Positions 263 to 25,968 of a stretch of DNA of 64,000 nucleotides are shown in pieces. Where the stretch lies: contig JAWCMS010000001.1 in the NCBI GenBank assembly GCA_038849525.1, positions 142,584 through 206,583 on the forward strand. The letters run 5' to 3'. The notes beneath the pieces are model-generated. The model did no database searches and was not told the DNA's origin. It worked only from the letters and a program-made list of their open reading frames with translations. The translations under genes were made by a program, and so were the position numbers. Each line of letters opens with the position of its first letter. The first letter of the stretch is position 1. This DNA comes from Candidatus Pacearchaeota archaeon. Lineage in GTDB: Archaea; Nanobdellota; Nanobdellia; Pacearchaeales; JAHJTO01.

Positions 263-375
<113 letters not shown>

Positions 376-6119: not shown

Positions 6120-6845
6120 ATGAGTATATTAAAAAATCTGCTAAAAGGATTTATTAAAATCTTTTTGGTTCTTACAATAATACTTTTCATTTTGGCATCG
6201 ACAGGAGCTCATTTTACAGAAAAGGAAAATTTAAAGTATTTAATTCAAGAAATAATGGTTGAACAAATCGATAAAAACTATCTTAAAACAATAACCGATG
6301 AATTAAATAATTTATGTTATCAACATGAAAATGAGGTAATTAATAGATACGTTTATGAAATTAATACAACAATAAATATAGACTGCACTAAAATTAGTGA
6401 GGAATACGCAAAAAAGATATTCAAAGATTATGTAGTTGATAAAGAAATTGAAAATCTATATGCTCAAAAATGTACTGGATTTAAGTGTTTTGCAAATTTT
6501 TCAGCTGCTGCAAGCCAATCAGCGCATAGTTTTCTTAGAAAATTAGAAGTTGTTTTTGCAATTTTAGCATTAATTTTTGTAGTTTTGTTATTTTTATTGA
6601 CAAAAAAGGTTTCTAATAAAATGTTTGCAATTGGAATTCCTTTATTTATCTGTGGGGTTCCTTATTTCTTTATTGAAACTATAAAGAAAAAAATTTTTTT
6701 AACTATCTCTAATGCTGTTATAATAAAAATAATTATAGATGCAATTTTTGATTATGCTAGCAATTTATTTTTGGTGATATTAATAATAAGCATTATTCTC
6801 ATTGCTATTGGATTTATTATAAAAATAATTTTTAAAAAAAGCTAA
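6120..6845 (+). CDS. hypothetical membrane protein
   Basis: 241 aa with N-terminal and C-terminal hydrophobic segments. Confidence 0.45.
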   Translation: MSILKNLLKGFIKIFLVLTIILFILASTGAHFTEKENLKYLIQEIMVEQIDKNYLKTITDELNNLCYQHENEVINRYVYEINTTINIDCTKISEEYAKKIFKDYVVDKEIENLYAQKCTGFKCFANFSAAASQSAHSFLRKLEVVFAILALIFVVLLFLLTKKVSNKMFAIGIPLFICGVPYFFIETIKKKIFLTISNAVIIKIIIDAIFDYASNLFLVILIISIILIAIGFIIKIIFKKS

Positions 6846-7648
6846 AGAGAATCAAAAGGAGATTTAATTTTCTTTAACTCATCTGTTGAAACATGTGTAT
6901 ATATTTGGGTTGTATTAAGATTAGAATGACCAAGTAGTTCTTGGATGTAACGAATATCTGTTCCAGCTTCAAGAAGATGTGTAGCAAAGCTGTGTCTTAA
7001 AGTGTGAGGTGTAACTTTTTTTTGTATATTTGCTTTTTTTGTTGCTAATTTTACTATCTTTTGAATATTTCGCGTTGTTAAAGGTTTGTCTTTTGAAAAT
7101 AAGTATTGATAGTTTGGATGTTTATCTATGAATGCTTTTAGTTCTGGAATTATTTTCTCTGGTATAATAAAAATCCTATCCTTATTACCTTTTCCAGATT
7201 TTATTATTCCTGTTCGGTTTTCTAAATTCAAATCTAAAATTTTTAAATTTACCAATTCTGAAACTCTTAGACCAGTAGCATAAATAAAAGAAATTATTAA
7301 CTTCGACTTATTTGTATCTGCACTTTCTATTATTCTTTTAACTTCTTCTTTAGTTAATACCAAAGGTAGTTTTTTTTCCTTTTTTATTGGATGTATGTTA
7401 GCAAAAATTTCCTTTCCTAAAATTTTTTCATAATAAAATTTTAATGAAGCTAATGCAAGGGTGACAGTTGCTGTTGATTTTTTATCTAAAGATGCTATAA
7501 ACTGTTTTATATCATCTAAATTAACTAAATCTGCAGATTTTTTTATAAATTCAAGAAATTTTTTGTTGAAAAAAAGATAATTTTTTATTGTTTTTTCTGA
7601 TTTTCTTTGTAAACGCAATTCTGTTTCTAGTTTTTTTAGATCATCCAT
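6842..7648 (-). CDS. xerA: Tyrosine recombinase XerA/XerC-like
   Basis: C-terminal catalytic motif HTLRHSFATHLLEAGTDIRYIQELLGHSNLNTTQIYTHV (R, H-x-x-R, Y). Size of 268 aa is typical of XerA. Confidence 0.85.
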   Translation of the reverse strand: MDDLKKLETELRLQRKSEKTIKNYLFFNKKFLEFIKKSADLVNLDDIKQFIASLDKKSTATVTLALASLKFYYEKILGKEIFANIHPIKKEKKLPLVLTKEEVKRIIESADTNKSKLIISFIYATGLRVSELVNLKILDLNLENRTGIIKSGKGNKDRIFIIPEKIIPELKAFIDKHPNYQYLFSKDKPLTTRNIQKIVKLATKKANIQKKVTPHTLRHSFATHLLEAGTDIRYIQELLGHSNLNTTQIYTHVSTDELKKIKSPFDSL

Positions 7649-7783: not shown

Positions 7784-8491
7784 TTATTTTTTCTTTTTTT
7801 GAATTTCTGTTTCTAAATAAACTTGACCAAATAAAGAAAATGATATTACTCCAATAATAAAAGAGTATATTGCTGAGCCTACATAAGGAATCAAGCCCAG
7901 GATTATACTAAATAATATACCAATAAAGGCCATTAAGATCCAAGCAACAAAATATTTTCCAGTAAATGCTTTTTTAAATATTCTTTTAAACTTAAAAGCT
8001 CCTGAAAAATTATTTTCTTGTAAATAAGAAAGAACAGCTATTGGTATGACATAAATTGCAACTAAAAATAACAAAGTTGAAAAAATAATAAAAGGAATAG
8101 CGTTGATTAATAATGGCCTTAAATTATCTATTATGGGTGAGATCAGAGCCATCTTAGCTTCGTCTGTAGCAGCATTAGAGATATCTTCTAAAGACAGTAA
8201 TGTTAATAATTGAACCATTAATGAACCTACTCCCACTATAAAAATAATTATTGCAGGTAAAAAATAAATTATAGAAATGAGAAAATTAAAAAAACCTTTT
8301 ATAAAAAGATTACCAAAGTTTTTCCATTCTGGCATTTTTTTACTCGGCTTTGTTTTTCCTACGCCAGAACATTCTAATATAAAGCCTACAGCAAACCAGT
8401 TTATTATAGGGAGTATAGAAAAGAGTATTCCAATTATTAACTTTTTGATATCTGTAAAAGGCTTTTCAAATGCGCTTGTATAATCTACCAT
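7784..8491 (-). CDS. polytopic membrane protein (DUF4013-like)
   Basis: 235 aa with multiple TM helices. Confidence 0.45.
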   Translation of the reverse strand: MVDYTSAFEKPFTDIKKLIIGILFSILPIINWFAVGFILECSGVGKTKPSKKMPEWKNFGNLFIKGFFNFLISIIYFLPAIIIFIVGVGSLMVQLLTLLSLEDISNAATDEAKMALISPIIDNLRPLLINAIPFIIFSTLLFLVAIYVIPIAVLSYLQENNFSGAFKFKRIFKKAFTGKYFVAWILMAFIGILFSIILGLIPYVGSAIYSFIIGVISFSLFGQVYLETEIQKKKK

Positions 8492-8582
8492 CTTTTTAAA
8501 AAAAGAAAATAGGGTTAATAAAACTTTTGTAAATAATTTTCAGAAAAAACGAGAGCATAGATGTTAGATTGCTTAGGAAAAA

Positions 8583-9533
8583 TTGGCGTTAGCCAAGTCG
8601 AAAAGATTAAAAATAAGCAAGACACTCTATTATAGAGGTGATTCGCCTCAGACGATTTCTGAGATCAAAATGGTATATGAAGATAAAAACAAAAATGAAA
8701 GTTTATTCCATGCTACTTTAATATATTTAAAAATAGTTTCTGCAGGAACAGCTTCTGGAAATAAAAAACTTAAAGAGTTTCTCGAAAAATACGGTTCTTT
8801 TGAAGGAATCTATAATGTGTATAAAGGTTCTATGTCTATTGAAGATTCGTTAAAAAAAATAAAAGGGCTTGAAAACATAATAAACAAACTAAACAACTTG
8901 AATTTTGATTTTAAAGTTATTACAATAAAAGATATTAATTTTCCAGAACATCTTAGAAAAATTGAAAATGCAACTCCAGTATTGTATGCAAGAGGAGATT
9001 TAAATCTATTAAATAAAAAAAGCATTGCTGTTGTCGGCTCAAGGCATATTTATCCAAATAAGGACAGACAAGTTTATGAAGAAGCTTATGATGTCATGAA
9101 AAGGCTTGTTGAAAAAAAGTATGTAATTGTTTCAGGGTTAGCTGAAGGATGTGATACTATAGGACATATACAAACAATTGAAAATGGGGGAAAAACTATT
9201 GCTGTATTAGGAACTCCTTTGGATCAGTACTATCCTTCTTCTAACAAAAATTTGCAAGAGAAGATAGCAAGAGAGCATCTTTTAATCTCACAATATCCTA
9301 TAGGAATCAGAACATTTAAATCTTATTTCACAAACAGAAACCATACAACAGTCTCTTTGGCAACAGAGGGGATTGTTGTGATAAAGGCATCTGACAATTC
9401 AGGAACAATGCATGCTGTAAAATTTTGTTCAGAACAAAAAAAACCAATTTATGTTCTTGCTAATAATTTTTCAAATAACTATAAGTGGCTTGAAATTTAT
9501 AAAAATTTTATAAAAAGAGTTGATAAAAAATGA
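8583..9533 (+). CDS. dprA: DprA/Smf-like DNA-processing protein (Rossmann/SLOG fold)
   Basis: Motifs SIAVVGSRHIYP, VIVSGLAEGCDTIGHIQTIENGGKTIAVLGTPLDQYYP, LLISQYP, YFTNRNHTT and EGIVVIKASDNSGTMHA match the DprA core: VVSGLArGID...GrTiAVLG...YP..N, FP.RNR, SGslITA. Confidence 0.7.
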   Translation: MALAKSKRLKISKTLYYRGDSPQTISEIKMVYEDKNKNESLFHATLIYLKIVSAGTASGNKKLKEFLEKYGSFEGIYNVYKGSMSIEDSLKKIKGLENIINKLNNLNFDFKVITIKDINFPEHLRKIENATPVLYARGDLNLLNKKSIAVVGSRHIYPNKDRQVYEEAYDVMKRLVEKKYVIVSGLAEGCDTIGHIQTIENGGKTIAVLGTPLDQYYPSSNKNLQEKIAREHLLISQYPIGIRTFKSYFTNRNHTTVSLATEGIVVIKASDNSGTMHAVKFCSEQKKPIYVLANNFSNNYKWLEIYKNFIKRVDKK

Positions 9534-10792
9534 AAAAATATCTTTTTGATTTAGACAACACAATTGCAGACACATCAGAAATAAAAATATATAGAAAATC
9601 GGCTGAAGGAATGGAATATTTAGCAGAAAACATTGACAAATTTAATATATACTATAATCCTAAAATAACCAATCTTATAAACAAACTTAATGAAAAAGGA
9701 AAAATCAGCATAATAACAAATGCCCCTCTTAACTATGCAAAAGCTATTCTTAAAAAAGGAGAATTTTCTGAAAGCATTCCAATTTATTCGAACATGAAAA
9801 AACCTATCCCAACAAAAATTTATTTTGAGCTTAAAAGAAAAATAAATCCTAATGAAACAATTGTAATAGGAAATTCTCCAAAAGACATAATTGCTGCTCA
9901 TGGATATATAGAAGATTTTGCAGGATATGAATGGCCAGAAACTTTTAATCTTCCATCAGCAGGAGTTATTTTTAAAAGAGAGAATGAAAAAATAAGACTC
10001 AAAAAAGCCATCAAGTTGAATAAAGCAGAACCTAATAAAATTCTCAAAAATACAGAAGATCTTGAAGAGCTTGTTGATGAATTTGAATCAGGAAAAATAA
10101 CTTATCAAAGAAGGAAATCTATAGATGAGTATTTTTTCATTTCTAAGCAAGAACTTCCTGAAAAAGATATTAAAATTGAAATATTTTATCTTGGAAATTA
10201 TTATCCGAAGGACAAGTTTCCTGATATGAACAAAAAAGATGCTTTTTCCCAACATCTTTTAAGGTTCAAAAGAGCTCAAGATTGCCCTATAGAGAATATA
10301 AATGATAGGATAATTGATAAATATTTTTTCAATGGACAGATAAGAGGAATCTATACATATTGGCATTCAATAAAATTTTTTCTTGAAAAAGCAGAAGACA
10401 GAATAGATGAGATGAATCTTAAAGGAAAAACTGAAGTGATAGCTTCTCCGAATTCATACCCTGAATACTGCTATGATACTGATGTTAATCAAGCATTTGC
10501 AAGAAAACTTAATAATGATTGCTTTAACATTTCTGAAACAAAAAGAATTGTATATAGAGTGTTTCCTAAAGAAAAACATTCGAGAGGCATTGAAAATCAT
10601 CTTAAGACAATAGGTATTGAGAAGACAGCCTTATCACATATTCAGACTCTTAATAATATAATAATATTTGATGATAATATTACTTCAGGTTCTCAGATAA
10701 AAGCAATAGCTTATCTTTTAAGACAAAAATGTAATTTTCAAGGAAATATTTATGGCTTAACATTGGGAAAAACAGTTGGATCTATGCAATAA
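9530..10792 (+). CDS. Fusion of an N-terminal HAD-superfamily hydrolase and a C-terminal PRTase-fold (ComF-like) domain
   Basis: N-terminus has FDLDNTIADT (HAD motif I DxDxT), IITNAP (motif II) and K...GNSPKDIIAAHG (motifs III/IV). C-terminus has IIIFDDNITSGSQIKAIAYLL, a type I PRTase PRPP-binding loop as in ComF/ComFC. The 4-bp overlap with dprA suggests an operon. Confidence 0.6.
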   Translation: MKKYLFDLDNTIADTSEIKIYRKSAEGMEYLAENIDKFNIYYNPKITNLINKLNEKGKISIITNAPLNYAKAILKKGEFSESIPIYSNMKKPIPTKIYFELKRKINPNETIVIGNSPKDIIAAHGYIEDFAGYEWPETFNLPSAGVIFKRENEKIRLKKAIKLNKAEPNKILKNTEDLEELVDEFESGKITYQRRKSIDEYFFISKQELPEKDIKIEIFYLGNYYPKDKFPDMNKKDAFSQHLLRFKRAQDCPIENINDRIIDKYFFNGQIRGIYTYWHSIKFFLEKAEDRIDEMNLKGKTEVIASPNSYPEYCYDTDVNQAFARKLNNDCFNISETKRIVYRVFPKEKHSRGIENHLKTIGIEKTALSHIQTLNNIIIFDDNITSGSQIKAIAYLLRQKCNFQGNIYGLTLGKTVGSMQ

Positions 10793-10831
10793 AAGAGAAA
10801 TGATTAAATACAAAACATACTTACAATCTTT

Positions 10832-11083
10832 ATGAAACTGACGAGAAAAGAATATTCCGTTCTGTATGAAATACATTCAGGAAGAAGCGATATTGAAAGA
10901 TTATCTAAGGTTTTTAGTAAAGAATATGCCTTTAAAACAGTAAAAAAGCTTGAAAAACTTGGATTAATAAAAATAGTTTCTTGGAGAGACAATCCTTTAT
11001 ATGGATTAATGCTAACAGAAAAAGGTGAAAAACTTCTTCAGAGTAAAAAGTATATGAAATGGTTTATTGAAGAAGGAGATTAG
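10832..11083 (+). CDS. small winged-HTH transcription regulator
   Basis: 83 aa with SVLYEIHSG...RLSKVF...VKKLEKLGLIKIV, a MarR/TrmB-like wHTH. Confidence 0.5.
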   Translation: MKLTRKEYSVLYEIHSGRSDIERLSKVFSKEYAFKTVKKLEKLGLIKIVSWRDNPLYGLMLTEKGEKLLQSKKYMKWFIEEGD

Positions 11084-11143
11084 CGTGTGACGGCGCGGCT
11101 CGCTTCTAAAAATACTTAAATATAAGCTCTGCATGGAAAAAAC

Positions 11144-12607
11144 ATGCCAATTTTGACGAAATCAAAATATGTTGACGGCTTGAAATGCCTGAAGTACTTG
11201 TGGCTTCAATATAATAATCCATCAGCCATTCCGGCTCCTGACGAATATGCCTTGTTTGTGATAAATGAAGGCCATAAAGTTGGAGAGTTTGCAAAAACTC
11301 TTTATCCTGATGGAATTGCTGTAAGCACAGAAAGCAATGATGAGAACATAAGAAAAACTCAGCAATTATTGAAATTGAGAAAGCCCCTTTTTGAGGCAGG
11401 AATTTCTATAGATAATTGTTATGCAAGAACAGACATTCTTTTGCCTGTTGAAAAAGATGAATGGGACATTGTTGAAGTGAAAAGTTCAAGTAGAGTGAAA
11501 GAAGATGAGCATATTCCTGATGTTGCTTTCCAGAAATATGTTTATAGCAAAGCAGGATTAAAAATAAGAAAATGCATTATAATGCATGTTGATAGCAAAT
11601 ATGAAAGAAATGGGAATATAGATGCAGAAGCCCTGTTTGTAAGAGAGGATGTAACTGAAAAAGTTGGCAAAGTAATCAAGGAAGTTCCAAAAAACATAAG
11701 GAGATTTTTTACTGTTATAAAAAGCAAAAAATGCCCTGAAATTGATATAGGAAATTATTGTGCTGATGAATTTGGAGTGCATGAAAATGATGCATTCTGG
11801 AAAAAACATCCTGACTGCAATATCCTTCAATTGTATCACTCAAAAGACAAGGAAGAATTATTCAATAAGGGAATATTGAGGATAAAAGATATTCCTTCAA
11901 GTTATAGATTAGATGCAAAGCAGCTTATACAGAAGAAATGTGATGAAAATAACAGCATTCATATTAATAAGAAGGAGATATCAAATTTTCTTTCTAATTT
12001 GCAGTATCCTCTTCATTTCCTTGATTTTGAGACTTATAATACGGCAATTCCATTGTATGACAAGCTTAAGCCATGGGAAAAAGTGGCTTTTCAGTATTCA
12101 TTACATATTGTAAAAGATGAAAATGCAAAGCCATTGCATTATTCTTTTCTTGCAAAAAACAATTCTGATCCAAGAAAAGATTTTATTGAAAGCCTTGAAA
12201 AAAAGATTATGAAAAAAGGGAGTATAGTTGTATGGAATGCGGTATTTGAAAAAAGTATTCTTAAAAGCATTGCAGAGCATATGCCAGAATATGCAGTTTC
12301 TGTAAATGAAATAATTGGAAGGATTGAAGATTTGATGATTCCTTTCAAAGATTTTTCATATTATAATCCTAAACAGAAAGGAAGCAATTCCCTAAAAACA
12401 ATATTTCCTTTGCTTACAGGAAGAAGCTATCAAGGATTAAATATCTCAGAAGGAGGAATTGCAAGTGCAAGATATTATAAAGCGGTTCATGAATCGATAA
12501 AAGAAAGCGAAAAAGAAAAAATTTTTGATGATCTTGAAAAATACTGCTCTTTGGATACAGAGGCGATGATTTTTGTTCTTGACAAGCTTAATGAGATTGC
12601 AAAGTAA
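11144..12607 (+). CDS. Dual nuclease: N-terminal RecB/Cas4-like PD-(D/E)xK domain plus C-terminal DEDD/RNase H-like exonuclease domain (DUF2779-like)
   Basis: N-terminus has KSKYVDGLKCLKYLWLQY then D(ILLP)...WDIVEVKSS, a D/E-x-K triad. C-terminus has YPLHFLDFETYNTAIP, resembling DnaQ Exo I D-x-E. Confidence 0.55.
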   Translation: MPILTKSKYVDGLKCLKYLWLQYNNPSAIPAPDEYALFVINEGHKVGEFAKTLYPDGIAVSTESNDENIRKTQQLLKLRKPLFEAGISIDNCYARTDILLPVEKDEWDIVEVKSSSRVKEDEHIPDVAFQKYVYSKAGLKIRKCIIMHVDSKYERNGNIDAEALFVREDVTEKVGKVIKEVPKNIRRFFTVIKSKKCPEIDIGNYCADEFGVHENDAFWKKHPDCNILQLYHSKDKEELFNKGILRIKDIPSSYRLDAKQLIQKKCDENNSIHINKKEISNFLSNLQYPLHFLDFETYNTAIPLYDKLKPWEKVAFQYSLHIVKDENAKPLHYSFLAKNNSDPRKDFIESLEKKIMKKGSIVVWNAVFEKSILKSIAEHMPEYAVSVNEIIGRIEDLMIPFKDFSYYNPKQKGSNSLKTIFPLLTGRSYQGLNISEGGIASARYYKAVHESIKESEKEKIFDDLEKYCSLDTEAMIFVLDKLNEIAK

Positions 12608-12719
12608 AGGCAAGTGATGTGAAAAGGTTTAATCAAAAAATTTAAATTTCTTAATTTATTTGAAAAAATATCCAGAAAACTTATGTTTTCTGGCTTTACT
12701 CATGTGGAGGCATTCGTAA

Positions 12720-12959
12720 ATGGTAAAAGAGTTGATAAGAATTGACTTGCCTGGTTTTGAGAAGAAGGATGTTGTTGTCAAAGTAAAAGATAATAAAGTA
12801 TTTGTGAATGCAGAAAAAAAGCATCACTTTAAGAAAAAAGGAAAAAACTTTTATCATGAGGAAAGTTCTTATAGAGCAGTAAGTTATATGACAACAATTC
12901 CTAAAGGAAAAAAAGTCAAAACAGAATTTAAAAAAGGCAGGCTAAAGGTTGTTGCATAG
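12720..12959 (+). CDS. Hsp20/alpha-crystallin domain protein (short, ACD core only)
   Basis: Motifs IRIDLPGFEKKDVVVKVKDNKVFV...YRAVSYMTTIPKG...KGRLKVV match the ACD consensus. A stop lies immediately upstream of the ATG. Confidence 0.55.
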   Translation: MVKELIRIDLPGFEKKDVVVKVKDNKVFVNAEKKHHFKKKGKNFYHEESSYRAVSYMTTIPKGKKVKTEFKKGRLKVVA

Positions 12960-12970
12960 AATTGGAAAAG

Positions 12971-13609
12971 TTATTTAAGTTTATCAATGAATTTTTCTAT
13001 TGCTAACTTTATTCTGTAGTCTTTCTCATCTTTCAAAACAGATTTTCCTTCCAATTCAGAAAGAATTATCTCTGTAATCTTGATGTCATCATCAAGCTGC
13101 TTGTAATAAACATCCCATTTGACGCATCCCATGTCTTTGAAATCAGGGCAGTTATAAACAGAATATTCTTTTCCTGGATGAATGATGCATTTAGGATCCA
13201 TAAATTCTGATTCATCCGCATCTTTTGCATATGAACTCATATGACTACAGGCAGGACAGTATGATTTTGAATTTCTCTGCATTTTCACTTTTTTAAGCTC
13301 ATCCTCGAAAAATTCTCTGACTATTCTGCGCTTTATTCCAGGATCTGCTCCTTGTTCAACCAATGCTTCAATTCCTTCAATATTTCTTGCCAGCGCAATA
13401 TCTCCATGCTTCTTTCCATTGTATGCAATTTTATCAATATTTCTTGCAGCCATTTTATAAAATTCATCATTTGATTTCTCTATTTTTTCTTCTAGAATAG
13501 TAGGAGAATCAAGATGTATCTGACTAATAATCGACATTTTTACATTAAATGCAAGTTTCCAGTACAAAAATGCGAGCCTGCTATTTTTCGATTCCATTTT
13601 ATTCCGCAA
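12971..13609 (-). CDS. hypothetical Cys-rich (putative Zn-binding) protein
   Basis: 212 aa. C-terminal half has CPAC...C..HPG...CPDFKDMGC. Confidence 0.4.
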   Translation of the reverse strand: MRNKMESKNSRLAFLYWKLAFNVKMSIISQIHLDSPTILEEKIEKSNDEFYKMAARNIDKIAYNGKKHGDIALARNIEGIEALVEQGADPGIKRRIVREFFEDELKKVKMQRNSKSYCPACSHMSSYAKDADESEFMDPKCIIHPGKEYSVYNCPDFKDMGCVKWDVYYKQLDDDIKITEIILSELEGKSVLKDEKDYRIKLAIEKFIDKLK

Positions 13610-13674
13610 TAAACACAGAAATTTCTTCCATGTTTTTCAGCTTTTCTTTGATATAATTGTTTATTTCAGGACAA

Positions 13675-14280
13675 TTATTGTTTATATAAAAAAGCATTTT
13701 TATGTTTTTCTATAAATCCTTCAATGTTTTTTCCAGCCTTTAATTTTTCAGCATCCTGCAGAACAGCTTGAATGATGTCATCTGCAGTTTTATTGAAATA
13801 GTTCTTTTCTTTTATTCTTATTGGATCTCTTAAAAACATAAATTCTAAGCCATAAAGAACAATAGGCTTCGGCTGATTCTTCATATTATTCTTGACATCT
13901 TTCTTGAAAACTCTATAATCCTGGTTTCTTATTGTTAAATAGTCATTTTTCTCAACAAACTCTGGATTCAGCAAGAGAATGCCATATTTTCCTCTCCCGT
14001 ATCTTGAATCCTCTGGCTTTACTTCGAAATTTAAGCCTTTCATTGAGCATTTGAATGGAGTTGCATATTCCCTTCTTAAAAGATAAGCAGACTTTCCATC
14101 CTTATCTTTATGCTCAAGATTTATATTGTTTTTAAGAATATGACAAAAATCATTGATTATGTCATATTCATTTCCATAAAGAGTAGACTTCTGCTTGAAT
14201 AAATATTCTGATTTTTTGATTGTGTTTTCAACTGCTTTAATTATTTTTTTCTTATATTCTTGAACGTCCTTAGCCATCAT
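13675..14280 (-). CDS. hypothetical protein
   Basis: 201-aa ORF. Confidence 0.4.
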   Translation of the reverse strand: MMAKDVQEYKKKIIKAVENTIKKSEYLFKQKSTLYGNEYDIINDFCHILKNNINLEHKDKDGKSAYLLRREYATPFKCSMKGLNFEVKPEDSRYGRGKYGILLLNPEFVEKNDYLTIRNQDYRVFKKDVKNNMKNQPKPIVLYGLEFMFLRDPIRIKEKNYFNKTADDIIQAVLQDAEKLKAGKNIEGFIEKHKNAFLYKQ

Positions 14281-14341
14281 TTTTTCATTACTTTAGAATT
14301 TATAAAAGTTCGCTTAAACCTAAGATTATATATAAAAATAG

Positions 14342-14587
14342 CTTATATTTTGCATAAGAATAAATAATAGGCCTAAAGAAACAGGAAAATATAAAGTAGT
14401 TCAATTTTCAAAGCAGGATGAGCCTTATTTAAGATTTAGGAGGCAGGAGGAATATCATAATAGCATTGTTGAAAGTTTTGCAAAAGAGATTGAAGTTTCA
14501 TGCAGGAAGGATAGAGGGATTATTGGAGAAAAATTAGTGCTTCCAGAATATTCTTCTTATAAAATAGATGGGATTCTGCTCTTATAA
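14342..14587 (+). pseudogene. Gene remnant: 81-codon in-frame open segment without a start codon
   Basis: Open frame ...RPKETGKYKVVQFSKQDEPYLRFRRQEEYHNSIVESFAKEIEVSCRKDRGIIGEKLVLPEYSSYKIDGILLL* has no ATG/GTG/TTG and an upstream TAG. The GEKLVLPEY..K.DGIL stretch looks like the tail of a PD-(D/E)xK-type enzyme. Confidence 0.3.
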
Positions 14588-14761
14588 TAAAGAAGAAAAA
14601 TCAATGAAATTTTATACTGCCTATAAAAGCAAAAATTATGATATTTGAATAAATAAAAGACATTGAGATTTAGTAAAATTTATGGGAAAAGAAGTAAAAA
14701 TTATCATAGAAGAATAATTTTTGAATTCGCCTAAGGCTTATTAAAAGAACTTTATAGGTAG

Positions 14762-14986
14762 CTAAAAAGCGTTTTTGCCGAAATAGGCCATTGATTTTGA
14801 CCTTTCATCTCTTGTAGTAATATGATGTTTTGGTGGGCCTTTGCATTCATAGACTGAATTGCCAAAAGAGTCATTGCCATGATACTTGAGCTTTTTCTTA
14901 TGTTCTGGGCAATATTTTGATAATTCTGAAAAGCTATCAACTCTTTTTTCAAGATTTCTTAATTTTTTTGCAATATTTTTTTCCAT
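14762..14986 (-). CDS. small hypothetical Cys/His-rich protein
   Basis: 74 aa with YCPEHKKKLKYHG...YECKGPPKHH. Preferred over the overlapping 14752..14952 frame. Confidence 0.35.
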   Translation of the reverse strand: MEKNIAKKLRNLEKRVDSFSELSKYCPEHKKKLKYHGNDSFGNSVYECKGPPKHHITTRDERSKSMAYFGKNAF

Positions 14987-15027
14987 TTTTTTATGTTGTA
15001 AAATATTTTAGGTTTTGCTTAAAAATT

Positions 15028-15306
15028 TTAAGCGCTTAATTTTTCTTCTATTGATCTTGCTTTTTTTGAATTTTTTGGAATTATTTTTAATTTTGGGAAT
15101 GTTTTATAAAATATTTCTAAATTAAATCTTAAGTATCCTTTTTTGTATGCTTTTTTGTAAGGCCATAATCCAAAAAAAGGATAACTTAATAAGAGATTAT
15201 CATTGGAGTTTTCTTTAATTTTATAATAAATATCACTATAATCTGGCCATGAAATTTTAATATAATCACCAGGTTTTGCTGTTTTTAGTTGCTTTAAGGT
15301 TGTCAT
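15028..15306 (-). CDS. hypothetical protein
   Basis: 92-aa ORF. Confidence 0.35.
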   Translation of the reverse strand: MTTLKQLKTAKPGDYIKISWPDYSDIYYKIKENSNDNLLLSYPFFGLWPYKKAYKKGYLRFNLEIFYKTFPKLKIIPKNSKKARSIEEKLSA

Positions 15307-15451
15307 TTTCTTAAATTTTGACTTAGGTTATATAAATATCTTTCTTTAGAAGCTCTTAAAATTCAAAAAAACAATGGTTTTATGACTAAATATGGGTTCG
15401 TATAAGCATTCTTATGCGTACTTTATAGGGAAAAAGAATTTTGCTTAGAAG

Positions 15452-15706
15452 TTATTGTTGTGCTTTTGAAACTATCCAAATCCCAGCGACTGCAATTGCA
15501 GTTACAATTAATGCAGCTAAAACTTTTAGGAGATAAGAAGTTCCTGTCAGGCCCATGCTTGTAATCAAACTGTCAACTCCTGATTTTATTGCATCATTCC
15601 AAGAAAGAGCAATTACAAAAGCAAAGGCAGCTGCAATGGATGTAAGTACTTTTCCCTTGACTTCCTTAATAAAGTTTTTTGGTGTTTCCACCACTTTTTT
15701 TACCAT
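15452..15706 (-). CDS. small membrane protein (two TM helices)
   Basis: 84 aa, hydrophobic. Confidence 0.4.
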   Translation of the reverse strand: MVKKVVETPKNFIKEVKGKVLTSIAAAFAFVIALSWNDAIKSGVDSLITSMGLTGTSYLLKVLAALIVTAIAVAGIWIVSKAQQ

Positions 15707-15963
15707 TTTTTATTAAGTTTTTTCAAGTTTTTATAGTTTTCTTATATAGGCGGAAAGTTTTCAGCATTGCTTAAAACTTTTGATTTTTTTGTTCTTTATA
15801 TCGCTTGTATTTTTTCCAAAGATGTTTTTCTCCAATATAGATACATCATGCTTCAATACCTGTAATAAGTAAAGAGCTGAGAAAATATGCTCCTATCTTT
15901 CTAAGTTTTCAGATTCAAAATTTGCTTGCATACGATGATAATAACTATAAAAAAGTTTAAATA

Positions 15964-16620
15964 TTGAACAGGTGTTTAAATTTTATGATTTTTAATTTCT
16001 GGCCTTTTAAAAAAAGTAATGAGCATGAAACCTTAAAAAATGAGATTAAACAGGCTTTTTCTGCTGTTAAACAAGATATAAATAAAGCAGCAGAGTGGAT
16101 TTCTCACTTACATACTAAAGATAAGCATCATGAAACTAAGTTTGAAGTTATAAATTCACGTTTATCGATGATAGAAAAAGATTTGGAAGAGATAAAAAAT
16201 TTTATTTCTTTCTTTTCTACAAGGACTAATAGAGTATTGTTTAAACAGCTGTCTAAACAAGGACAAACACCTGTTTATAAACAAACAACTGTTGGTGGTG
16301 TTCAAACAGCTGTTCAAACAGCTGTTCAAACAGGTTTTTTAGGTAATTTAAGTGCAAATGAAAGATTAATTGTTTGGACCTTGTTAAATACAGATATGAA
16401 ATTGAGCTGTGAAGATATAGCAGCAATATTAAATAAAGAGAGATCTACTATTAGAGGTCAAATAAATGCAATAAAACAAAAAAGTGAGAATCTTATTAGC
16501 GAAATTTCTGAAAACAATGGTAAAAAAAGATTTTTTATTGATGAAAAAGTGAAAGAAATGTTATTATCAAAAATATCTGAATCTAGGCGCCAGCTAAAGC
16601 TAAAGGCTAAGGAAAAATAA
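15964..16620 (+). CDS. coiled-coil protein with C-terminal HTH (sigma-70 region 4 / LuxR-like). Paralog of 16889..17653.
   Basis: N-terminal heptad-rich region, in-frame (VQTA)n repeat, then LSANERLIVWTLLNTDMKLSCEDIAAILNKERSTIRGQINAIKQK. Confidence 0.5.
   Translation: MNRCLNFMIFNFWPFKKSNEHETLKNEIKQAFSAVKQDINKAAEWISHLHTKDKHHETKFEVINSRLSMIEKDLEEIKNFISFFSTRTNRVLFKQLSKQGQTPVYKQTTVGGVQTAVQTAVQTGFLGNLSANERLIVWTLLNTDMKLSCEDIAAILNKERSTIRGQINAIKQKSENLISEISENNGKKRFFIDEKVKEMLLSKISESRRQLKLKAKEK
16300..16333 (+). repeat. In-frame tandem 12-nt repeat (GTTCAAACAGCT, about 2.8 copies) inside CDS 15964..16620
   Basis: gttcaaacagct gttcaaacagct gttcaaacag, encoding (VQTA)n. Confidence 0.9.
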
Positions 16621-16840
16621 AAAAGTGAGGATTATTTTTTAATTAAAACGAACTTTATAGTTATAATTTAGTATATTAAACGAATCTTTTACTAATAAAA
16701 ATTAAAAAAGTGAGAGTTATAGAGATCTAAAAATTTTTAAAAAATTAAGAAAAATAAATAAAAATTAAATAAAAAAAGAAATTTTTAATAAAAAGTGAGG
16801 ATTAATTAAAAATATTCGGTTAAACGTAAAAAGTGAAAGC
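16621..16840. repeat. Reiterated AAAAAGTGAGGATTA motif, 4 copies (two exact, two degenerate) between the convergent paralogs
   Basis: Copies at 16621-16635, 16705-16720, 16791-16806 and 16828-16840. Spacing is irregular (about 85, 86 and 37 nt). Each copy is followed by A/T-rich tracts. Confidence 0.7.
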
Positions 16841-16888
16841 AAAAACATTTAATTAATTTAAAATTTTTATTAATTATAGCTTATTTCT

Positions 16889-17653
16889 TTAATTTTTTTT
16901 AGAATTGAACTCATTAAGACTGCTATTCGGCATCTGATTTCTTATTCTCAATAAAATGTCTAAAGTCGCTAAGTTCCTAATTTCATCAGGTATTTTTAGT
17001 ATTGTGACCTTATTATTAAGTCTTTCCTTAACTATTGGGATGCCTTTTTTTATTATTTTTTGTACATAATCACGTATACTTGACTCAGAAAGGCCTGTTT
17101 TTTCTGAAAGAGTCTTGTAAGTTATTGATTTTTGACTTTTATCGACGGTAAATAAGATTTGAAAAATATAAAATTCTTGTTTTGTTAATGACCTAAAACG
17201 CATTTTTAAGTCATTTTTTAAATTGTTTACTAGTTCTGTGATGCTTTCTGTTTGTTGTTTAGATGTGTTGAAATATGTATTTGTTTGTTGGATTTCTTTG
17301 TCTATCTGTTGGATATCTGTTGGATTTTGTGTTGGAATATATGTTGGAATTTTATTTTGCAAAGAGAATTTATCGTCGATAATTGTTGAAAATATGTTGG
17401 TTGTTGGTCTGTCTGTCTGTCTGTCTGTTGGAACCCCTTTATTTCCTATGGAAATTTGCTGTATAAAGTTCGTTTTAATTTCTTGTAATTCTTTTTTAAG
17501 TGTAATTATTTGTTCTGTTAGAGAATCTATATCTCTTTTTACTTTTTCAAAGGCTTCTTTTAGTTTTTCTTCATTCATCTTATTTTTAAATCTATGTTTA
17601 ATTAAATAATTTATTATAATAGAATGATTAGGTATAGGTATGATCTCTTTCAT
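16889..17653 (-). CDS. coiled-coil protein with C-terminal HTH. Paralog of 15964..16620. Contains a (GTCT)5 tetranucleotide repeat.
   Basis: N-terminus EKLKEAFEKVKRDIDSLTEQI is similar to the paralog. C-terminus has LTKQEFYIFQILF...YKTLSEKTGLSESSIRDYVQK (HTH). The repeat encodes TDRQTDRP. Confidence 0.5.
   Translation of the reverse strand: MKEIIPIPNHSIIINYLIKHRFKNKMNEEKLKEAFEKVKRDIDSLTEQIITLKKELQEIKTNFIQQISIGNKGVPTDRQTDRPTTNIFSTIIDDKFSLQNKIPTYIPTQNPTDIQQIDKEIQQTNTYFNTSKQQTESITELVNNLKNDLKMRFRSLTKQEFYIFQILFTVDKSQKSITYKTLSEKTGLSESSIRDYVQKIIKKGIPIVKERLNNKVTILKIPDEIRNLATLDILLRIRNQMPNSSLNEFNSKKN
17407..17426. repeat. (GTCT)5 simple sequence repeat within CDS 16889..17653
   Basis: ggtctgtctgtctgtctgtctgtt. 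Flanked by further TGTTGGA-type reiterations at 17280-17350. Confidence 0.9.
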
Positions 17654-20650: not shown

Positions 20651-20661
20651 AAAATAAAAAA

Positions 20662-21381
20662 ATGAAAATTTTAAATGATATCGAAATTGTTGATAAGTGT
20701 CTTTTAATAAAGAAAAGAATTCTTGTAATAGCAGATTTACACATTGGTTATGAAGAAGCATTGAATAAACAAGGTATTTTTGTTCCGAGAATGCAATTTA
20801 AAGAAACAAAAAAAGAGATTAATAAAGTATTTAAAAAACTAAATAGAAAAAAAATAGAGAATATAATTATAAATGGTGATTTGAAGCATGAGTTTGGTGA
20901 AATTTCAACACAGGAATGGTTTGAAACATATGAAATTCTTAACATCTTTGAAAAACATTGTAAGAAAATTATTTTGGTAAAAGGAAATCATGATACAATC
21001 TTAAAACCGATAGCAAAGAGGAAGGGATTAAAGATAGAAAAAAAGTATATTATTGATAATGAAATAGCAATAATTCATGGTGATGAAATTATTGAAGATA
21101 AAGAAATTAATAAATGTAAAATATTAATTATTGCTCATGAACATCCTGCAATTTCACTATATGAAGAACCGAAAAGTGAAAAATATAAATGTTTTTTACT
21201 TGGTAATTTCAGAAATAAAAAGTTAGTTGTTATGCCTTCATTTCTTCCAATTATTGAAGGAACTGATGTAAGAAAAGAAGAACTTCTTTCTCCTTACCTT
21301 AAAAGAGATATTGGAAACTTTAAAGTTTTTATTGTAGGAGATAAAACATATAAGTTTGGAAAATTGAAAAATATAGGATAA
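20662..21381 (+). CDS. Metallophosphoesterase (MPE, Mre11/SbcD-related calcineurin-like) partner of Lhr
   Basis: Motifs ADLHIGYEE, INGDLKHE, VKGNHD and IAHEHP are phosphoesterase signatures. The Lhr-MPE gene pair is a known conserved arrangement. Confidence 0.7.
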   Translation: MKILNDIEIVDKCLLIKKRILVIADLHIGYEEALNKQGIFVPRMQFKETKKEINKVFKKLNRKKIENIIINGDLKHEFGEISTQEWFETYEILNIFEKHCKKIILVKGNHDTILKPIAKRKGLKIEKKYIIDNEIAIIHGDEIIEDKEINKCKILIIAHEHPAISLYEEPKSEKYKCFLLGNFRNKKLVVMPSFLPIIEGTDVRKEELLSPYLKRDIGNFKVFIVGDKTYKFGKLKNIG

Positions 21382-22493: not shown

Positions 22494-22754
22494 TTATGCT
22501 AAATCTTCTTCACTTACAACTACAAAATCACCTATTGCTATAATTGCACTATAAGGAATAAGTAAATCATTATCTTTTGTTTTTTCTAACCCTAAAGAGA
22601 GAGCATAAGCTGTAGGTTGTGTAAGCATTAGATGTATTAATTCACCAGTTTTTATTTCAAAAGTAATATCTTTTACTACACCAAGCCTCCTACCTTCTTT
22701 TGTTACTACGCTTTTAGTAAGAATTTCTTTAAGAGGCTTTTTTTCTAATGCCAT
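22494..22754 (-). CDS. PRC-barrel domain protein
   Basis: 86 aa with VVTKEGRRLGVVKDITFEIKTGELIHLML, a PRC-barrel pattern. A paralog lies at 44483..44758. Confidence 0.55.
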   Translation of the reverse strand: MALEKKPLKEILTKSVVTKEGRRLGVVKDITFEIKTGELIHLMLTQPTAYALSLGLEKTKDNDLLIPYSAIIAIGDFVVVSEEDLA

Positions 22755-22895
22755 ATTCTTTTATAAGTTAATTAATTTATAAATGTTTCTATTTTATAAT
22801 GACTTTTTTATAATAAAGTAGTAAGAGCTTTAAAATTTAAATTTATGTTTAATTTGATATCTAAAATAATTTTAAAAATTCGTTTAATTTTTTAA

Positions 22896-22926
22896 GTGTC
22901 CCCTTCATTGCTTATGGAAATATAAA
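22896..22926. repeat. ORB-like box 1 (G-string plus ATGGAAATATA)
   Basis: gtgtccccttcattgcttATGGAAATATAaa. Its reverse complement, TTCCATAAGCAATGAAGGGGA, resembles the archaeal ORB dyad TTCCAGTGGAAAC...GGGG. Confidence 0.45.
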
Positions 22927-23080
22927 AAAATTTAAAAAGATTGTCAAAAATTTTATTTTCTTTTTTTATTTAATTTATAAATTTTTATATATTTTTATAT
23001 TATATATTATAAATATATTTTTCTAATATATTTTTTAAAAATAAATTATCTTATAAAATAAATAAATATTTTTAAATTTT

Positions 23081-23104
23081 GTTTCCAATGGAAATATAGG
23101 TCTG
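23081..23104. repeat. mini-ORB-like box 2 (TTCCAATGGAAA dyad)
   Basis: gTTTCCAATGGAAATATAgg contains the palindromic core TTCCA-ATGGAA, like the mini-ORB TTCCAGTGGAAA. Confidence 0.5.
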
Positions 23105-23232
23105 TATTATTATTTTTCATTTGAAATATATTTATAAAAGGAGCTTTTTTTAAAAAATAACAAAAAATGTAAAAGGAGGCAAAAGAGGCTAAGGATTTAA
23201 TAAATTTTATAATTTATTTTTAAGATAGCCTT

Positions 23233-25961: not shown

Positions 25962-25968
25962 TAAAAAC

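Follow-up and report, generated by a model that had tools for sequence, protein, structure and literature searches.

The 64,000-nucleotide stretch of DNA from a Candidatus Pacearchaeota archaeon that was analyzed here (the window) encodes a textbook member of the DUF2779 family. Judged by its sequence and predicted structure, this protein of 487 amino acids combines, in a single polypeptide, two nucleases with intact catalytic sites, a Cas4/RecB-type PD-(D/E)xK domain at the N terminus and a DEDDy-type 3'-5' exonuclease domain at the C terminus. We have high confidence in this domain identity and architecture.

Overall architecture of the protein

The gene is a complete open reading frame, from ATG to stop codon (Table 1), and an identical protein, derived from a Pacearchaeota MAG, is already listed at NCBI under the name 'DUF2779 domain-containing protein'. 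The original prediction had proposed a two-headed nuclease here, with a Cas4/RecB-like N-terminal and a DEDD-like C-terminal domain. The reading frame and the motifs that it named were found in their places, and the architecture is borne out by Pfam, by the conserved residues and by the fold searches. The DUF2779 model (PF11074) is matched over its full length (model positions 1-126) by residues 291-416, with an E value of 3.2e-41 and a score of 141 bits (cut-off, 23.3), which confirms the proposed family assignment. The Cas_Cas4 model (PF01930) is matched by residues 62-183, with an E value of 1e-4 and a score of 22.9 bits, barely above the cut-off of 22.7; PADLOC also matches Cas4 in this protein. 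When the two halves were analyzed separately with Pfam, DUF2779 was found in the C-terminal half and Cas_Cas4 in the N-terminal half, the same as with the full-length protein.

Table 1. Positions of the nuclease gene, its domains and motifs, and its upstream neighbors in the window
Feature	Position	Strand	Basis
ShosTA-like toxin-antitoxin pair (neighbor of the nuclease gene)	8583..10792	+	PADLOC, Pfam, architecture of E. coli ShosT
ShosA-like gene (DprA fold)	8583-9533	+	PADLOC ShosA, 2.9e-64
ShosT-like gene (HAD-type hydrolase + PRTase)	9530-10792	+	PADLOC ShosT, 2.1e-10, a modest 38.9 bits
83-aa winged-helix protein, weak Csa3/MarR-type HTH	10832..11083	+	Located between the ShosT-like and nuclease genes
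TATA-box-like element TTAAATATAA, ~23 nt upstream of the nuclease ATG	11116..11125	+	Sequence read
DUF2779-family two-nuclease gene, complete	11144..12607 (stop codon included)	+	ORF call, Pfam, identical NCBI protein, AlphaFold model
Cas4/RecB-type PD-(D/E)xK nuclease core, aa 1-196	11144..11731	+	Cas_Cas4 match, Foldseek, invariance in 79 species
Catalytic segment D97 ... E111-V-K113 of the PD-(D/E)xK site	11432..11482	+	Invariance in alignments
Metal-cluster segment, aa 197-225, CPEIDIGNYCADEFGVHENDAFWKKHPDC	11732..11818	+	Alignments
Helical linker between the nuclease domains, aa 226-289	11819..12010	+	Secondary structure of model
DEDDy-type 3'-5' exonuclease domain, RNase H-like fold, aa 290-487	12011..12604	+	Pfam, model, Foldseek
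Exo I, FLDFET (aa 292-297; D294, E296), strand β1	12017..12034	+	Alignments, model
Exo II, VVWNAVFEKSIL (N365, F368, E369)	12227..12262	+	Alignments, match to Pol I chain
Exo III, Y467-C-S-L-D471, DEDDy type, C-terminal helix	12542..12556	+	Alignments, model

The protein has the plan that is typical of the family, with roughly 480-500 residues and the Cas4-like domain ahead of the DUF2779 domain; most of the 150 best representatives have 470-510 residues. More than 4,000 full-length homologs are found at E values of 1e-5 or lower, and 8,072 representatives of 50%-identity clusters at 1e-3 or lower, which puts the finding far outside chance. The best 120 homologs share 42-51% identity with the protein, in alignments that cover 94-100% of the query. 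The full-length AlphaFold model has a pLDDT of 95.1 and a pTM of 0.88.

Conservation was assessed with 79 species-level homologs that represent more than 15 phyla of bacteria and archaea. Asp97, Glu111, Lys113 and Gln130 in the N-terminal domain and Asp294, Glu296, Glu369, Asp396, Tyr467 and Asp471 in the C-terminal domain are invariant among these 79 representatives, and also in the 120 close homologs. As the catalytic residues are invariant in both sets, both sites are under selection.

The two-domain architecture is already known. Both domains of DUF2779 proteins have been described computationally, by Majorek et al. in 2014 (PMC3985635) and in a 2026 mSphere paper on JCVI-syn3.0 (PMC13621843), and DUF2779 is family F.17 in the classification of the RNase H-like superfamily. 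Literature searches found no biochemical data for any DUF2779 protein, in keeping with the earlier description of the family as functionally uncharacterized.

The N-terminal Cas4/RecB-type domain

The N-terminal core contains Cys15 in the first helices, Glu84, Asp97, the E111-V-K113 segment and the Q130-x3-Y134 motif. The lead-in motif that had been read from the sequence is present as K6-x2-Y9-x3-L13-x-C15-x-K17-x2-W20-L21. With the full-length model as the query, Foldseek finds the Cas4 structures 4r5q and 4ic1 and human EXO5 (7lwa), each with a probability of 1.00. The PD-(D/E)xK fold and the D...ExK and QxxxY motifs are shared with Cas4 and solo-Cas4 proteins (SSO0001, 4IC1; Pcal_0546, 4R5Q), EXO5, AddB/AdnAB and ACE1. 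As in the Cas4 group, an N-terminal helix that carries a cysteine is stapled onto a C-terminal metal loop.

There are several differences, however, between this domain and Cas4. The Pfam score is at threshold only, a second nuclease is fused to the domain, and the spacing of the cysteines is C-x5-C-x4/5-C in DUF2779 proteins. In comparison, the spacing in Cas4 and AddB is C-x2-C-x5-C. The metal-cluster segment CPEIDIGNYCADEFGVHENDAFWKKHPDC is a His-type variant of the iron-sulfur motif of the family, C-x5-C-x4/5-C-W. Cys15 and Cys206 are retained from the four-cysteine set, and the other two positions are occupied by Val212 and Phe218. The canonical cluster cysteines are found in 72 of the 79 species representatives, and the His-type variant is common to five archaeal ones. 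From these alignments, the protein belongs to an archaeal sub-clade in which most of the Fe-S cysteines have been replaced, a minor novelty. With only one of the three cluster cysteines left at the C-terminal end of the domain, the metal site, and perhaps the activity, may differ from those of canonical Cas4.

The two nuclease domains are connected by a helical linker. A helix-hairpin-helix motif was suspected in this region (residues 226-289), and was dropped as no Pfam match was found there.

The C-terminal DEDDy exonuclease domain

The predicted fold and the motifs identify the C-terminal half as a DEDDy-type 3'-5' exonuclease domain. Modeled by itself, the domain has a pLDDT of 91.7. Its Foldseek matches include the exonuclease region of ASFV PolB (probability 1.00, TM 0.57), the HSV-1 polymerase in the exo state (0.96), and ERI2, ERI3 and 3'hExo, while the full-length model also finds RNase T and a DnaQ domain with probabilities of 0.93-0.99. 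All the proteins named here as matches of this half are RNase H-like; the E values of the isolated domain against solved structures are weak, with the best being 2.5e-3. The fold searches place the C terminus in the RNase H-like/DEDD exonuclease fold rather than an unrelated one.

The Exo motifs are located on the expected elements of the model, with Exo I on strand β1, Exo II on the helix after β4, and Exo III on the last helix. The FLDFET segment is Exo I, as had been proposed. The YSFLAKN segment (residues 333-339), which had been named as a place to look for Exo II, corresponds instead to strand β3. The true Exo II motif, W364-N-A-V-F-E369, lies where the helix after strand β4 (residues 360-363) begins, and its acidic residue is a Glu where Asp is usual. 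The acidic residues of Exo II and Exo III are not absent from the homologs: Glu369 and the Y467-x3-D471 pair are invariant.

The RNase H-like fold is shared with DEDDy/DEDDh exonucleases, including the proofreading domains of family A and B polymerases, RNase T, ERI/3'hExo, MrfB, and the Cas2-DnaQ prespacer trimmer. The DxE of Exo I, the NxxF-acidic segment of Exo II and the Yx3D of Exo III are common to these enzymes and the C-terminal domain. On the other hand, this domain has a Glu in Exo II, an extra invariant Asp396, and no attached polymerase or helicase. Sequence similarity to any solved structure is marginal. The family profile gives one match of 41 residues among PDB sequences, in the Exo II region, to the Pol I chain 9qhs_A (E = 0.014), and a single-sequence phmmer search against all PDB chains gives no match. 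An E value of 5e-7 has been reported for the HHpred match between a DUF2779 family member and MrfB (8UN9) (PMC13621843).

Comparison with other two-domain nucleases

The overall plan of the protein, with a Cas4-like N-terminal domain and a DEDDy C-terminal domain, is the same as that of MMSYN1_0389 of JCVI-syn3.0 and Mbov_0804 of Mycoplasma bovis, and the catalytic residues are shared as well, including a Tyr in Exo III where other enzymes have a His. The mycoplasma branch is only a distant one, however. Its members have about 650 residues, compared to 487 in the archaeal protein, the archaeal protein reaches 47.8 bits with the NCBIfam UU173_fam model (cut-off, 225), and the His-type replacement of the Fe-S cysteines sets its sub-clade apart from that branch. 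MMSYN1_0389 counts as a quasi-essential gene of the minimal cell in a rich, phage-free medium (PMC13621843). A transposon mutant of Mbov_0804 grows poorly with host cells, and RecD, DnaB and HolA mutants were recovered in the same screen of M. bovis (PMC7373297).

The domain order and the relative placement of the two domains are also the same in the COG2251/PF13482 proteins, fusions of a YprB-type RNase_H_2 domain and a Cas4-like domain, which include proteins of giant viruses (CroV E3T4R0, Faunusvirus and Yasminevirus). Full-length Foldseek comparisons with these proteins give TM scores of 0.58-0.69 and E values down to 5e-16. They belong to a separate Pfam family, however, with 9-16% sequence identity, and the viral ones are longer (471-892 residues). 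COG2251 members often have added AAA domains and were noted alongside DUF2779 by Majorek et al. (PMC3985635). Faint PF13482 matches are seen in some close homologs of the 487-residue protein.

The family has a patchy distribution over bacteria and archaea, at 40-50% identity. It is found in several lineages with reduced genomes, and just as commonly in the free-living Dehalococcoidia, Verrucomicrobiota and Omnitrophota. A phage origin was considered and set aside, as a tblastn search of 50,697 phage genomes gave no match.

Gene neighborhood

Two genes with a 4-bp overlap, followed by a gene for a winged-helix protein, are located upstream of the nuclease gene. The two had been called DprA/ComF-like, and from this position a role for the nuclease in processing incoming DNA had been suggested. 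The first protein does contain a DprA domain (DNA_processg_A, E = 4e-51), with S. pneumoniae DprA as its closest relative in the PDB. Both equivalog scores are missed, however, at 141.2 bits for DprA (TIGR00732; cut-off, 191.15) and 16.6 bits for ComF (TIGR00201; cut-off, 233.55). ShosTA consists of the DprA-like ShosA and a protein with a HAD-type hydrolase and a PRTase; the second protein here has 420 residues, E. coli ShosT has 424, and the domain architecture is that of the crystallized ShosT. The archaeal pair differs in its order, A then T, and in its host. By profile matches and architecture, the two genes are a ShosTA-type toxin-antitoxin defense pair.

The nuclease gene and this pair are neighbors by chance. 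Homologs of ShosA, ShosT or the winged-helix protein were found by blastp within 8 kb of none of the 79 DUF2779 homologs. A scan of metagenomes found no relatives of the ShosT-like protein, and its homologs came from a protein search. Of the three ShosT-homolog loci examined, two retain the overlapping DprA-like partner, and none has a DUF2779 gene within 6 kb, so the pair is conserved independently of DUF2779; one genome holds genes of both types, about 35 kb apart. The element TTAAATATAA is a candidate private promoter of the nuclease gene, from which a leaderless or short-leader mRNA may be produced. A search for repeats of a GC-rich 19-mer that lies upstream of the gene found no second copy in the window.

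There is no conserved operon partner in the neighborhoods of the homologs by Pfam and PADLOC tallies, blastp of neighbors, or all-against-all clustering of 934 ORFs. The Pfam tally assigned 136 flanking proteins to 136 families, none of them seen more than three times, and a tyrosine recombinase, present at 7 of 79 loci, is the commonest neighbor within 8 kb. The nuclease gene is a solo, horizontally mobile gene. A link to CRISPR was considered because the winged-helix protein weakly resembles Csa3, and was rejected; no CRISPR-like array is found in the window, no CRISPR RNA family is matched, and no cas genes are seen among the neighbors scanned. Unlike the CRISPR-associated Cas4 of adaptation modules, the nuclease gene has no cas1, cas2 or CRISPR array nearby.

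Proposed mechanism and possible functions

The protein is most probably a stand-alone enzyme of the cytoplasm. By analogy with its relatives, the Cas4-like domain would thread and cut single-stranded 5' tails, with 5'-to-3' exonuclease and endonuclease activity supported by Mn2+ or Mg2+. The DEDDy domain would trim 3' ends by two-metal hydrolysis, with Tyr467 positioning the attacking water. Together, the two activities would allow the protein to process or destroy DNA ends in both polarities with no need for a helicase. The polarity, the nature of the substrate, whether DNA or RNA and whether single- or double-stranded, and the cooperation of the two domains are drawn from these analogies and may differ in this protein. 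The role we consider most likely, although with somewhat less than even confidence, is a general one in repair and recombination, in which the enzyme would process and turn over DNA ends and clear linear or damaged DNA. Its gene would have its own promoter and would spread as a solo gene, not as a component of ShosTA or of DNA uptake. A role beyond defense is suggested because MMSYN1_0389 is quasi-essential and the Mbov_0804 mutant grows poorly with host cells.

The position of the gene raises two other possibilities. The nuclease could be an extra component of ShosTA that resects DNA ends, producing ssDNA for a recombinase loaded by ShosA and thereby countering the damage caused by ShosT. Two published reports describe ShosA as binding ssDNA and RecA and promoting recombinational repair of ShosT-induced damage (PMC11961720, PMC12961424), which would suit this arrangement, as would the order of the genes on one strand (shosA, shosT, wHTH, nuclease) with gaps of 40 and 60 bp. 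We consider it very improbable, given the absence of linkage at all 79 homolog loci and at the three loci examined that encode the rare HAD-PRTase protein, and the nuclease gene's own TATA-like box. Hardly credible is a competence-type pathway in which the nuclease would act with DprA and ComF on incoming transforming DNA. The DprA domain and the weak ComF-type PRTase signal next to it had suggested this reading, but both cut-offs are missed, the PRTase protein is better explained as ShosT, the linkage to the nuclease is not conserved, and no further competence genes are seen in the neighborhood. The nuclease gene thus lies outside a DNA-uptake pathway, and the tempting but wrong link to DNA uptake is corrected here.

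The likeliest alternative, although we regard it as somewhat unlikely, is a dedicated anti-mobile-element nuclease, either a one-gene innate defense or a shared accessory of defense islands, which would attack foreign DNA, linear or nicked, from both ends and destroy it. In all four DPANN contigs inspected, genes for GmrSD, type II/IIG/III restriction-modification or SNF2/DISARM-like systems are located a few genes away. A tally of 107 proteins within three genes of a homolog at 23 DPANN loci is headed by ResIII (4), with D12 and N6_N4 DNA methylases, Schlafen-type helicase, Fic and CARF (2 each), and GmrSD and R.HinP1I (once each). On plasmids, the genes that flank DUF2779 copies encode SspD, a PbeA-like helicase, an MzaB-like ATPase, a PLD nuclease, a PDC-S26 nuclease and WYL. 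DUF2779 genes in DPANN and on plasmids are thus often associated with defense islands, in a qualitative sense, and in these neighborhoods rich in restriction and defense genes a defense role fits at least as well as housekeeping. The location of the present gene 352 bp downstream of the ShosTA pair, the patchy distribution, and the absence from phage genomes point the same way. Most of the immediate neighbors in 68 diverse species, however, are genes that are unrelated or have housekeeping functions (KdpA, histidinol dehydrogenase, PFK, ABC-F, tRNA synthetase). PADLOC 2.0 has no model for the family, no module for self/non-self discrimination is obvious, and the mycoplasma homolog is quasi-essential where phages are absent. 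An improbable alternative is that RNA is the main substrate, as for RNase T, ERI and oligoribonuclease, or that the enzyme salvages nucleotides for DPANN, Parcubacteria and mycoplasmas with reduced biosynthesis. RNases (RNase T, ERI2/ERI3, 3'hExo, Pan2) are among the structural neighbors of the C-terminal domain, the M. bovis mutant came from a screen dominated by nucleotide-recycling enzymes (PMC7373297), and the family is present in several reduced-genome lineages. It is no rarer in the free-living ones, however, and the best high-TM matches of the C-terminal domain are DEDDy-type proofreading domains of DNA polymerases. In the cases studied so far, the Cas4/RecB/EXO5 domain is known to be specific for DNA (for background, see PMC5704561), which also counts against RNA. 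Helicase-independent processing of DNA ends from both polarities is the most likely of these functions.

Implications for the family

The locus brings no new architecture; it provides a compact archaeal representative of the family and a confident model. The family is large, with about 8,000 clusters at 50% identity in bacteria and archaea, and the same two-domain fold is found in proteins of giant viruses. With nucleases for 5' and 3' ends in one chain, its members could be a minimal, helicase-free counterpart of the end processing carried out by RecBCD/AddAB-type enzymes, or alternatively an unrecognized defense effector. A combined proposal, which we hold as a rather unlikely one, is that DUF2779 is a widespread, unlisted single-gene defense or defense-accessory nuclease that, with no helicase, attacks invading linear DNA at its free ends in both polarities, and that the archaeal sub-clade has exchanged the Fe-S cluster for a His/Cys site, probably for zinc. 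If true, the defense reading would explain the patchy distribution between the domains of life and the frequent restriction, GmrSD, Ssp, DISARM-like and toxin-antitoxin neighbors, and the archaeal sub-clade would have given up an oxygen-sensitive Fe-S cluster.

Domain architecture of the DUF2779 protein

The original prediction had described the gene product as a Cas4/RecB-like nuclease fused to a DEDD-like exonuclease. The features that it quoted are found in the translated open reading frame: the lead-in K6-x2-Y9-x3-L13-x-C15-x-K17-x2-W20-L21, the catalytic residues D97 and E111-V-K113 of the N-terminal domain, and FLDFET at residues 292–297. The DUF2779-like assignment is also correct, with a match of Pfam PF11074 to residues 291–416 (E=3.2e-41, 141 bits, cut-off 23.3). 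Cas_Cas4 (PF01930) matches residues 62–183 (22.9 bits, cut-off 22.7), and separate Pfam scans of each half find the same two families and no others. An identical protein is already at NCBI ('MAG: DUF2779 domain-containing protein [Candidatus Pacearchaeota archaeon]'), on a contig of 400,615 bp. The gene is a new member of a known, uncharacterized family.

The two-domain plan is already known, as the architecture was described by Majorek et al. (2014; PMC3985635) and in a 2026 paper (PMC13621843). The former assigned PF11074 (family F.17) to the clade of 3'-5' exonucleases within the RNase H-like superfamily and remarked on its co-occurrence with DUF83/Cas4. The latter analyzed MMSYN1_0389, a quasi-essential protein of JCVI-syn3.0. 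A transposon mutant of the M. bovis homolog grows poorly in cell culture (PMC7373297). The fusion is not covered in a study of Cas4 phylogenomics (PMC5704561), and our literature search found no biochemical study of DUF2779 proteins, in agreement with their description as functionally uncharacterized.

Features of the nuclease gene, its product and the surrounding window
Feature	Position	Strand	Basis or remarks
ShosA-like gene (DprA domain)	8583-9533	+	PADLOC ShosA, 2.9e-64
ShosT-like gene, 420 aa (HAD-type hydrolase, then PRTase-like region)	9530-10792	+	PADLOC ShosT, 2.1e-10
wHTH gene, 83 aa	10832-11083	+	Weak Csa3/CasR-type and MarR-type HTH similarity; between shosT-like and nuclease genes
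Candidate promoter box TTAAATATAA	~23 nt upstream of nuclease ATG	+	Sequence reading
DUF2779 two-nuclease gene	11144-12607	+	ATG-to-stop ORF, 487 codons
Exo I (D294, E296)	Strand, aa 290-298		Alignment and model
Exo II (N365-x2-F368-E369)	Start of helix aa 366-379, after strand 360-363		Alignment and model
Exo III (Y467-x3-D471)	Last helix, aa 454-486		Alignment and model
Lhr-type large helicase (869 aa; DEAD_assoc, WH_Lhr domains), then calcineurin-like metallophosphoesterase	18041-21381	+	
cdc6/orc1	23233-24447		
PolD genes	24444-29412		

Modeled structures of the two nuclease domains

The AlphaFold model of the full-length protein, built from a 50-sequence alignment, has a mean pLDDT of 95.1 and a pTM of 0.88. 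Among solved structures, Foldseek matches it with probability 1.00 to the Cas4 proteins Pcal_0546 (4r5q) and SSO0001 (4ic1) and to human EXO5 (7lwa), while ACE1 (an Argonaute-associated Cas4-family enzyme) and the AdnAB nuclease rank lower. In 120 close homologs, D97, E111, K113 and Q130 (the D...ExK and QxxxY motifs) and C15 vary little or not at all; in 79 species-level homologs from more than 15 phyla (GTDB genomes) they are invariant. The matches to Cas4 and EXO5 and the conserved active site bear out the predicted PD-(D/E)xK domain.

In the C-terminal domain, both of the expected downstream motifs, Exo II and Exo III, are present. The proposed location of Exo II at 'YSFLAKN' is incorrect, since this segment is strand β3. 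The residues of the three motifs, as well as D396, are invariant in all 79 species. A model of this domain alone (residues 272–487) has a pLDDT of 91.7, and its named Foldseek matches are all RNase H-like proteins. Family-B DNA polymerases give the best high-TM matches, through their exonuclease regions (ASFV polymerase at probability 1.00 and TM 0.57, and HSV-1 polymerase, in its exonuclease state, at 0.96); ERI2, ERI3, 3'hExo, Maelstrom and Pan2 come next. RNase T (0.93) and a DnaQ domain (0.99) were matched in the full-length search. The family profile has a single sequence match in the PDB: a Pol I chain aligns over its Exo II stretch ('VIVYNQSFEAGV', E=0.014) and likewise has Glu at the Exo II acidic position. 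Although the E-values to solved structures are weak, the fold, the order, placement and invariance of the motifs, and the literature agree in supporting a DEDD-like domain. The two-domain assignment stands because the Exo II and Exo III acids are conserved and the fold is not an unrelated one.

A variant of the Fe-S motif

C15 and the motif C-x5-C-x4/5-C-W, the expected Fe-S ligands, are found in 72 of the 79 species representatives. A different motif, CPE(F/I)..G..(Y/C)(H).D..GVH..D.FWK(E/K)HP.(C), occurs in the window protein and in five of its archaeal relatives, which belong to the Woese- and Micrarchaeota, the Thermoplasmata and, in one case, an archaeon not assigned to a phylum. In this segment of the window (11732–11818, residues 197–225), two of the three C-terminal Fe-S cysteines are replaced, and the conserved ..GVH..D.FWKEHP.. 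contains a histidine. Two further archaeal homologs are irregular, one from Pacearchaeota with neither motif and one from Nanoarchaeota with cysteines in a non-canonical spacing. Comparison of these sequences suggests that the Fe-S cluster has been replaced by a His/Cys site, or lost, in the window-type archaeal proteins. The 2026 paper (PMC13621843) remarked that the mycoplasma branch has lost cysteines in parallel.

Gene neighborhood

The two genes at 8583–10792 had been taken as DprA/ComF-like, and processing of incoming DNA was suggested on this basis. That identity is rejected, as the scores are below the cut-offs for both the DprA equivalog (141 vs 191) and ComF (16.6 vs 233), and the genes match the ShosA and ShosT models. 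They are in the order shosA-like to shosT-like, with a 4-bp overlap. Like the ShosT-like protein of the window, the crystallized E. coli ShosT (424 aa) begins with a hydrolase/pyrophosphatase domain and ends with a PRTase. Judged by sequence, the pair is a ShosTA-type toxin-antitoxin defense pair in a DPANN (Pacearchaeota) chromosome. The ShosT-like protein has only 16 homologs in a collection of 5.8 billion proteins, mostly on Nanoarchaeota-type contigs. At two of three such loci inspected the gene has an overlapping stop/start with a preceding DprA-domain gene, and at none of the three is there a DUF2779 gene within 6 kb.

No homolog of the wHTH protein adjoins the other DUF2779 genes (79 loci, ORFs within 8 kb, blastp), and the window has no CRISPR-cas genes. 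Right after the wHTH stop codon lies a GC-rich 19-mer (GTGTGACGGCGCGGCTCGC, 11085–11103) in a genome of ~28% G+C; a repeat search finds it once in the window. The box upstream of the nuclease gene is a putative archaeal promoter, from which a leaderless mRNA would be expected.

Tyrosine recombinases excepted, the ShosA-like, ShosT-like, wHTH and other flanking proteins have no homolog within 8 kb of the 79 DUF2779 homologs (blastp, all ORFs). The 136 immediate flanking genes at 68 loci gave 136 Pfam families, each at most three times. After all-against-all clustering of 934 neighboring ORFs, the most recurrent families are tyrosine recombinase (7 loci), ABC-F ATPase (6) and SAM methyltransferase (4). 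With no conserved neighbor, an intervening wHTH gene and its own promoter-like box, the nuclease gene is therefore a solo gene, and its position next to ShosTA is a non-conserved association. The inference about incoming DNA falls, as the neighbors are ShosTA and the linkage is absent in the 79 loci.

An XerC/D-type tyrosine recombinase (268 aa, 6842–7648, minus strand) is encoded 0.9 kb upstream of the ShosTA genes and may be a chromosomal XerA or a marker of a variable region; such recombinases are the most recurrent DUF2779 neighbor elsewhere too (7/79 loci). Pfam and PADLOC gave no match for two adjoining ORFs of 212 and 201 aa (12971–14280, minus strand), which lie shortly downstream of the nuclease gene and a gene for Hsp20.

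The window comes from the chromosome of a Pacearchaeota-type archaeon. It has a G+C content of ~28% and carries 5S rRNA, tRNA-Ser, products matching RNA polymerase Rpb3/RpoA (subunit D-like) and a ribosomal-protein S4 domain, a XerA-like recombinase, Cdc6/Orc1, both PolD subunits, and the Lhr helicase and metallophosphoesterase, which are the usual Lhr-MPE repair pair. The very AT-rich intergenic region 22754–23233 holds a 26-bp x 3.5 tandem repeat (22989–23078) and many imperfect inverted repeats. Its position immediately upstream of cdc6/orc1 and the PolD genes makes it a candidate replication origin; no clear origin-recognition boxes were found in it.

Distribution of the family

At E<=1e-5, the 8,000 candidates scored include more than 4,078 homologs. 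Among representatives of clusters at 50% identity, 8,072 match at E<=1e-3 and 2,331 at <=1e-30. Among the best 150 representatives, lengths are mostly 470–510 aa. The closest 80 homologs in species-representative genomes have 38–49% identity to the window protein and come from archaea (Woese-, Pace-, Micr- and Nanoarchaeota, Thermoplasmata, Methanosarcinales) and bacteria (Dehalococcoidia, Actinomycetota, Verrucomicrobiota, Omnitrophota, Planctomycetota, Parcubacteria, Bacteroidota), among other groups. Such identity across scattered taxa indicates that the gene is frequently transferred horizontally. By tblastn, copies are present on 33 of 72,556 plasmids and in none of 50,697 phage genomes.

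In BFVD, giant-virus proteins match both domains at once (TM 0.58–0.69, E down to 5e-16), including those of Faunusvirus (A0A3G4ZWN9), CroV (E3T4R0, 'YprB RNase H-like'), Yasminevirus, Sylvanvirus and a Megaviridae sample. Bacteriophage proteins match the PD-(D/E)xK half only.

Possible functions

The protein combines two active sites in one chain, both of them intact, strongly conserved and of known fold. By analogy with characterized relatives, the Cas4/EXO5-type domain would act on 5' single-stranded tails, an activity summarized in PMC5704561, and the DEDDy domain would remove 3' nucleotides via two-metal catalysis. With both domains, the enzyme would need no helicase to process or degrade DNA ends of both polarities.

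The candidate roles are repair and recombination, which quasi-essentiality in the minimal cell favors, defense, and nucleotide recycling. A defense role draws on restriction and defense genes near DUF2779 in DPANN loci and on plasmids. On four DPANN contigs inspected, the gene is beside GmrSD and type IIS/IIG restriction-modification, Eco57I, a set of SNF2 helicase, methylase and Res-type endonuclease, or GmrSD and Dam methylase. Among 107 proteins within three genes at 23 DPANN loci, restriction-, methylase-, Schlafen-helicase-, Fic- and CARF-type proteins are the commonest, in raw counts. On plasmids, the Planktothrix gene is flanked by SspD (6.6e-115), an MzaB-like ATPase, a PbeA-like helicase and a PLD protein, and the Aliarcobacter gene by a WYL protein and a PDC-S26 nuclease. 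In Helicobacter an AAA ATPase adjoins the gene, a PDC-M03A-like protein follows closely downstream, and the plasmid also carries toxin-antitoxin genes. Many bacterial loci, however, are plainly housekeeping. As the neighbor counts are raw and such loci are many, we regard defense as rather unlikely, and keep it as a serious rival, not a conclusion.

At the Pacearchaeota locus L004 (the L009 region; 8001–17312), the DUF2779 stop codon overlaps the start of a SNF2/DrmD-like helicase, and genes for an N6_N4 methylase and for a protein with ResIII and RE_endonuc come next; the gene may be in an operon with a restriction/DISARM-like system. On Planktothrix agardhii plasmid p2 (locus L091, NZ_LR882954.1, 189–9446), SspD, two unknown genes, the PbeA-like DEAD helicase, the MzaB-like ATPase, DUF2779 and the PLD-family protein follow one another on the same strand, in what looks like a composite or new defense locus.

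The His-type motif variant is a small new point on the DUF2779 family. The nuclease itself is of modest interest, a good biochemical target and no surprise.
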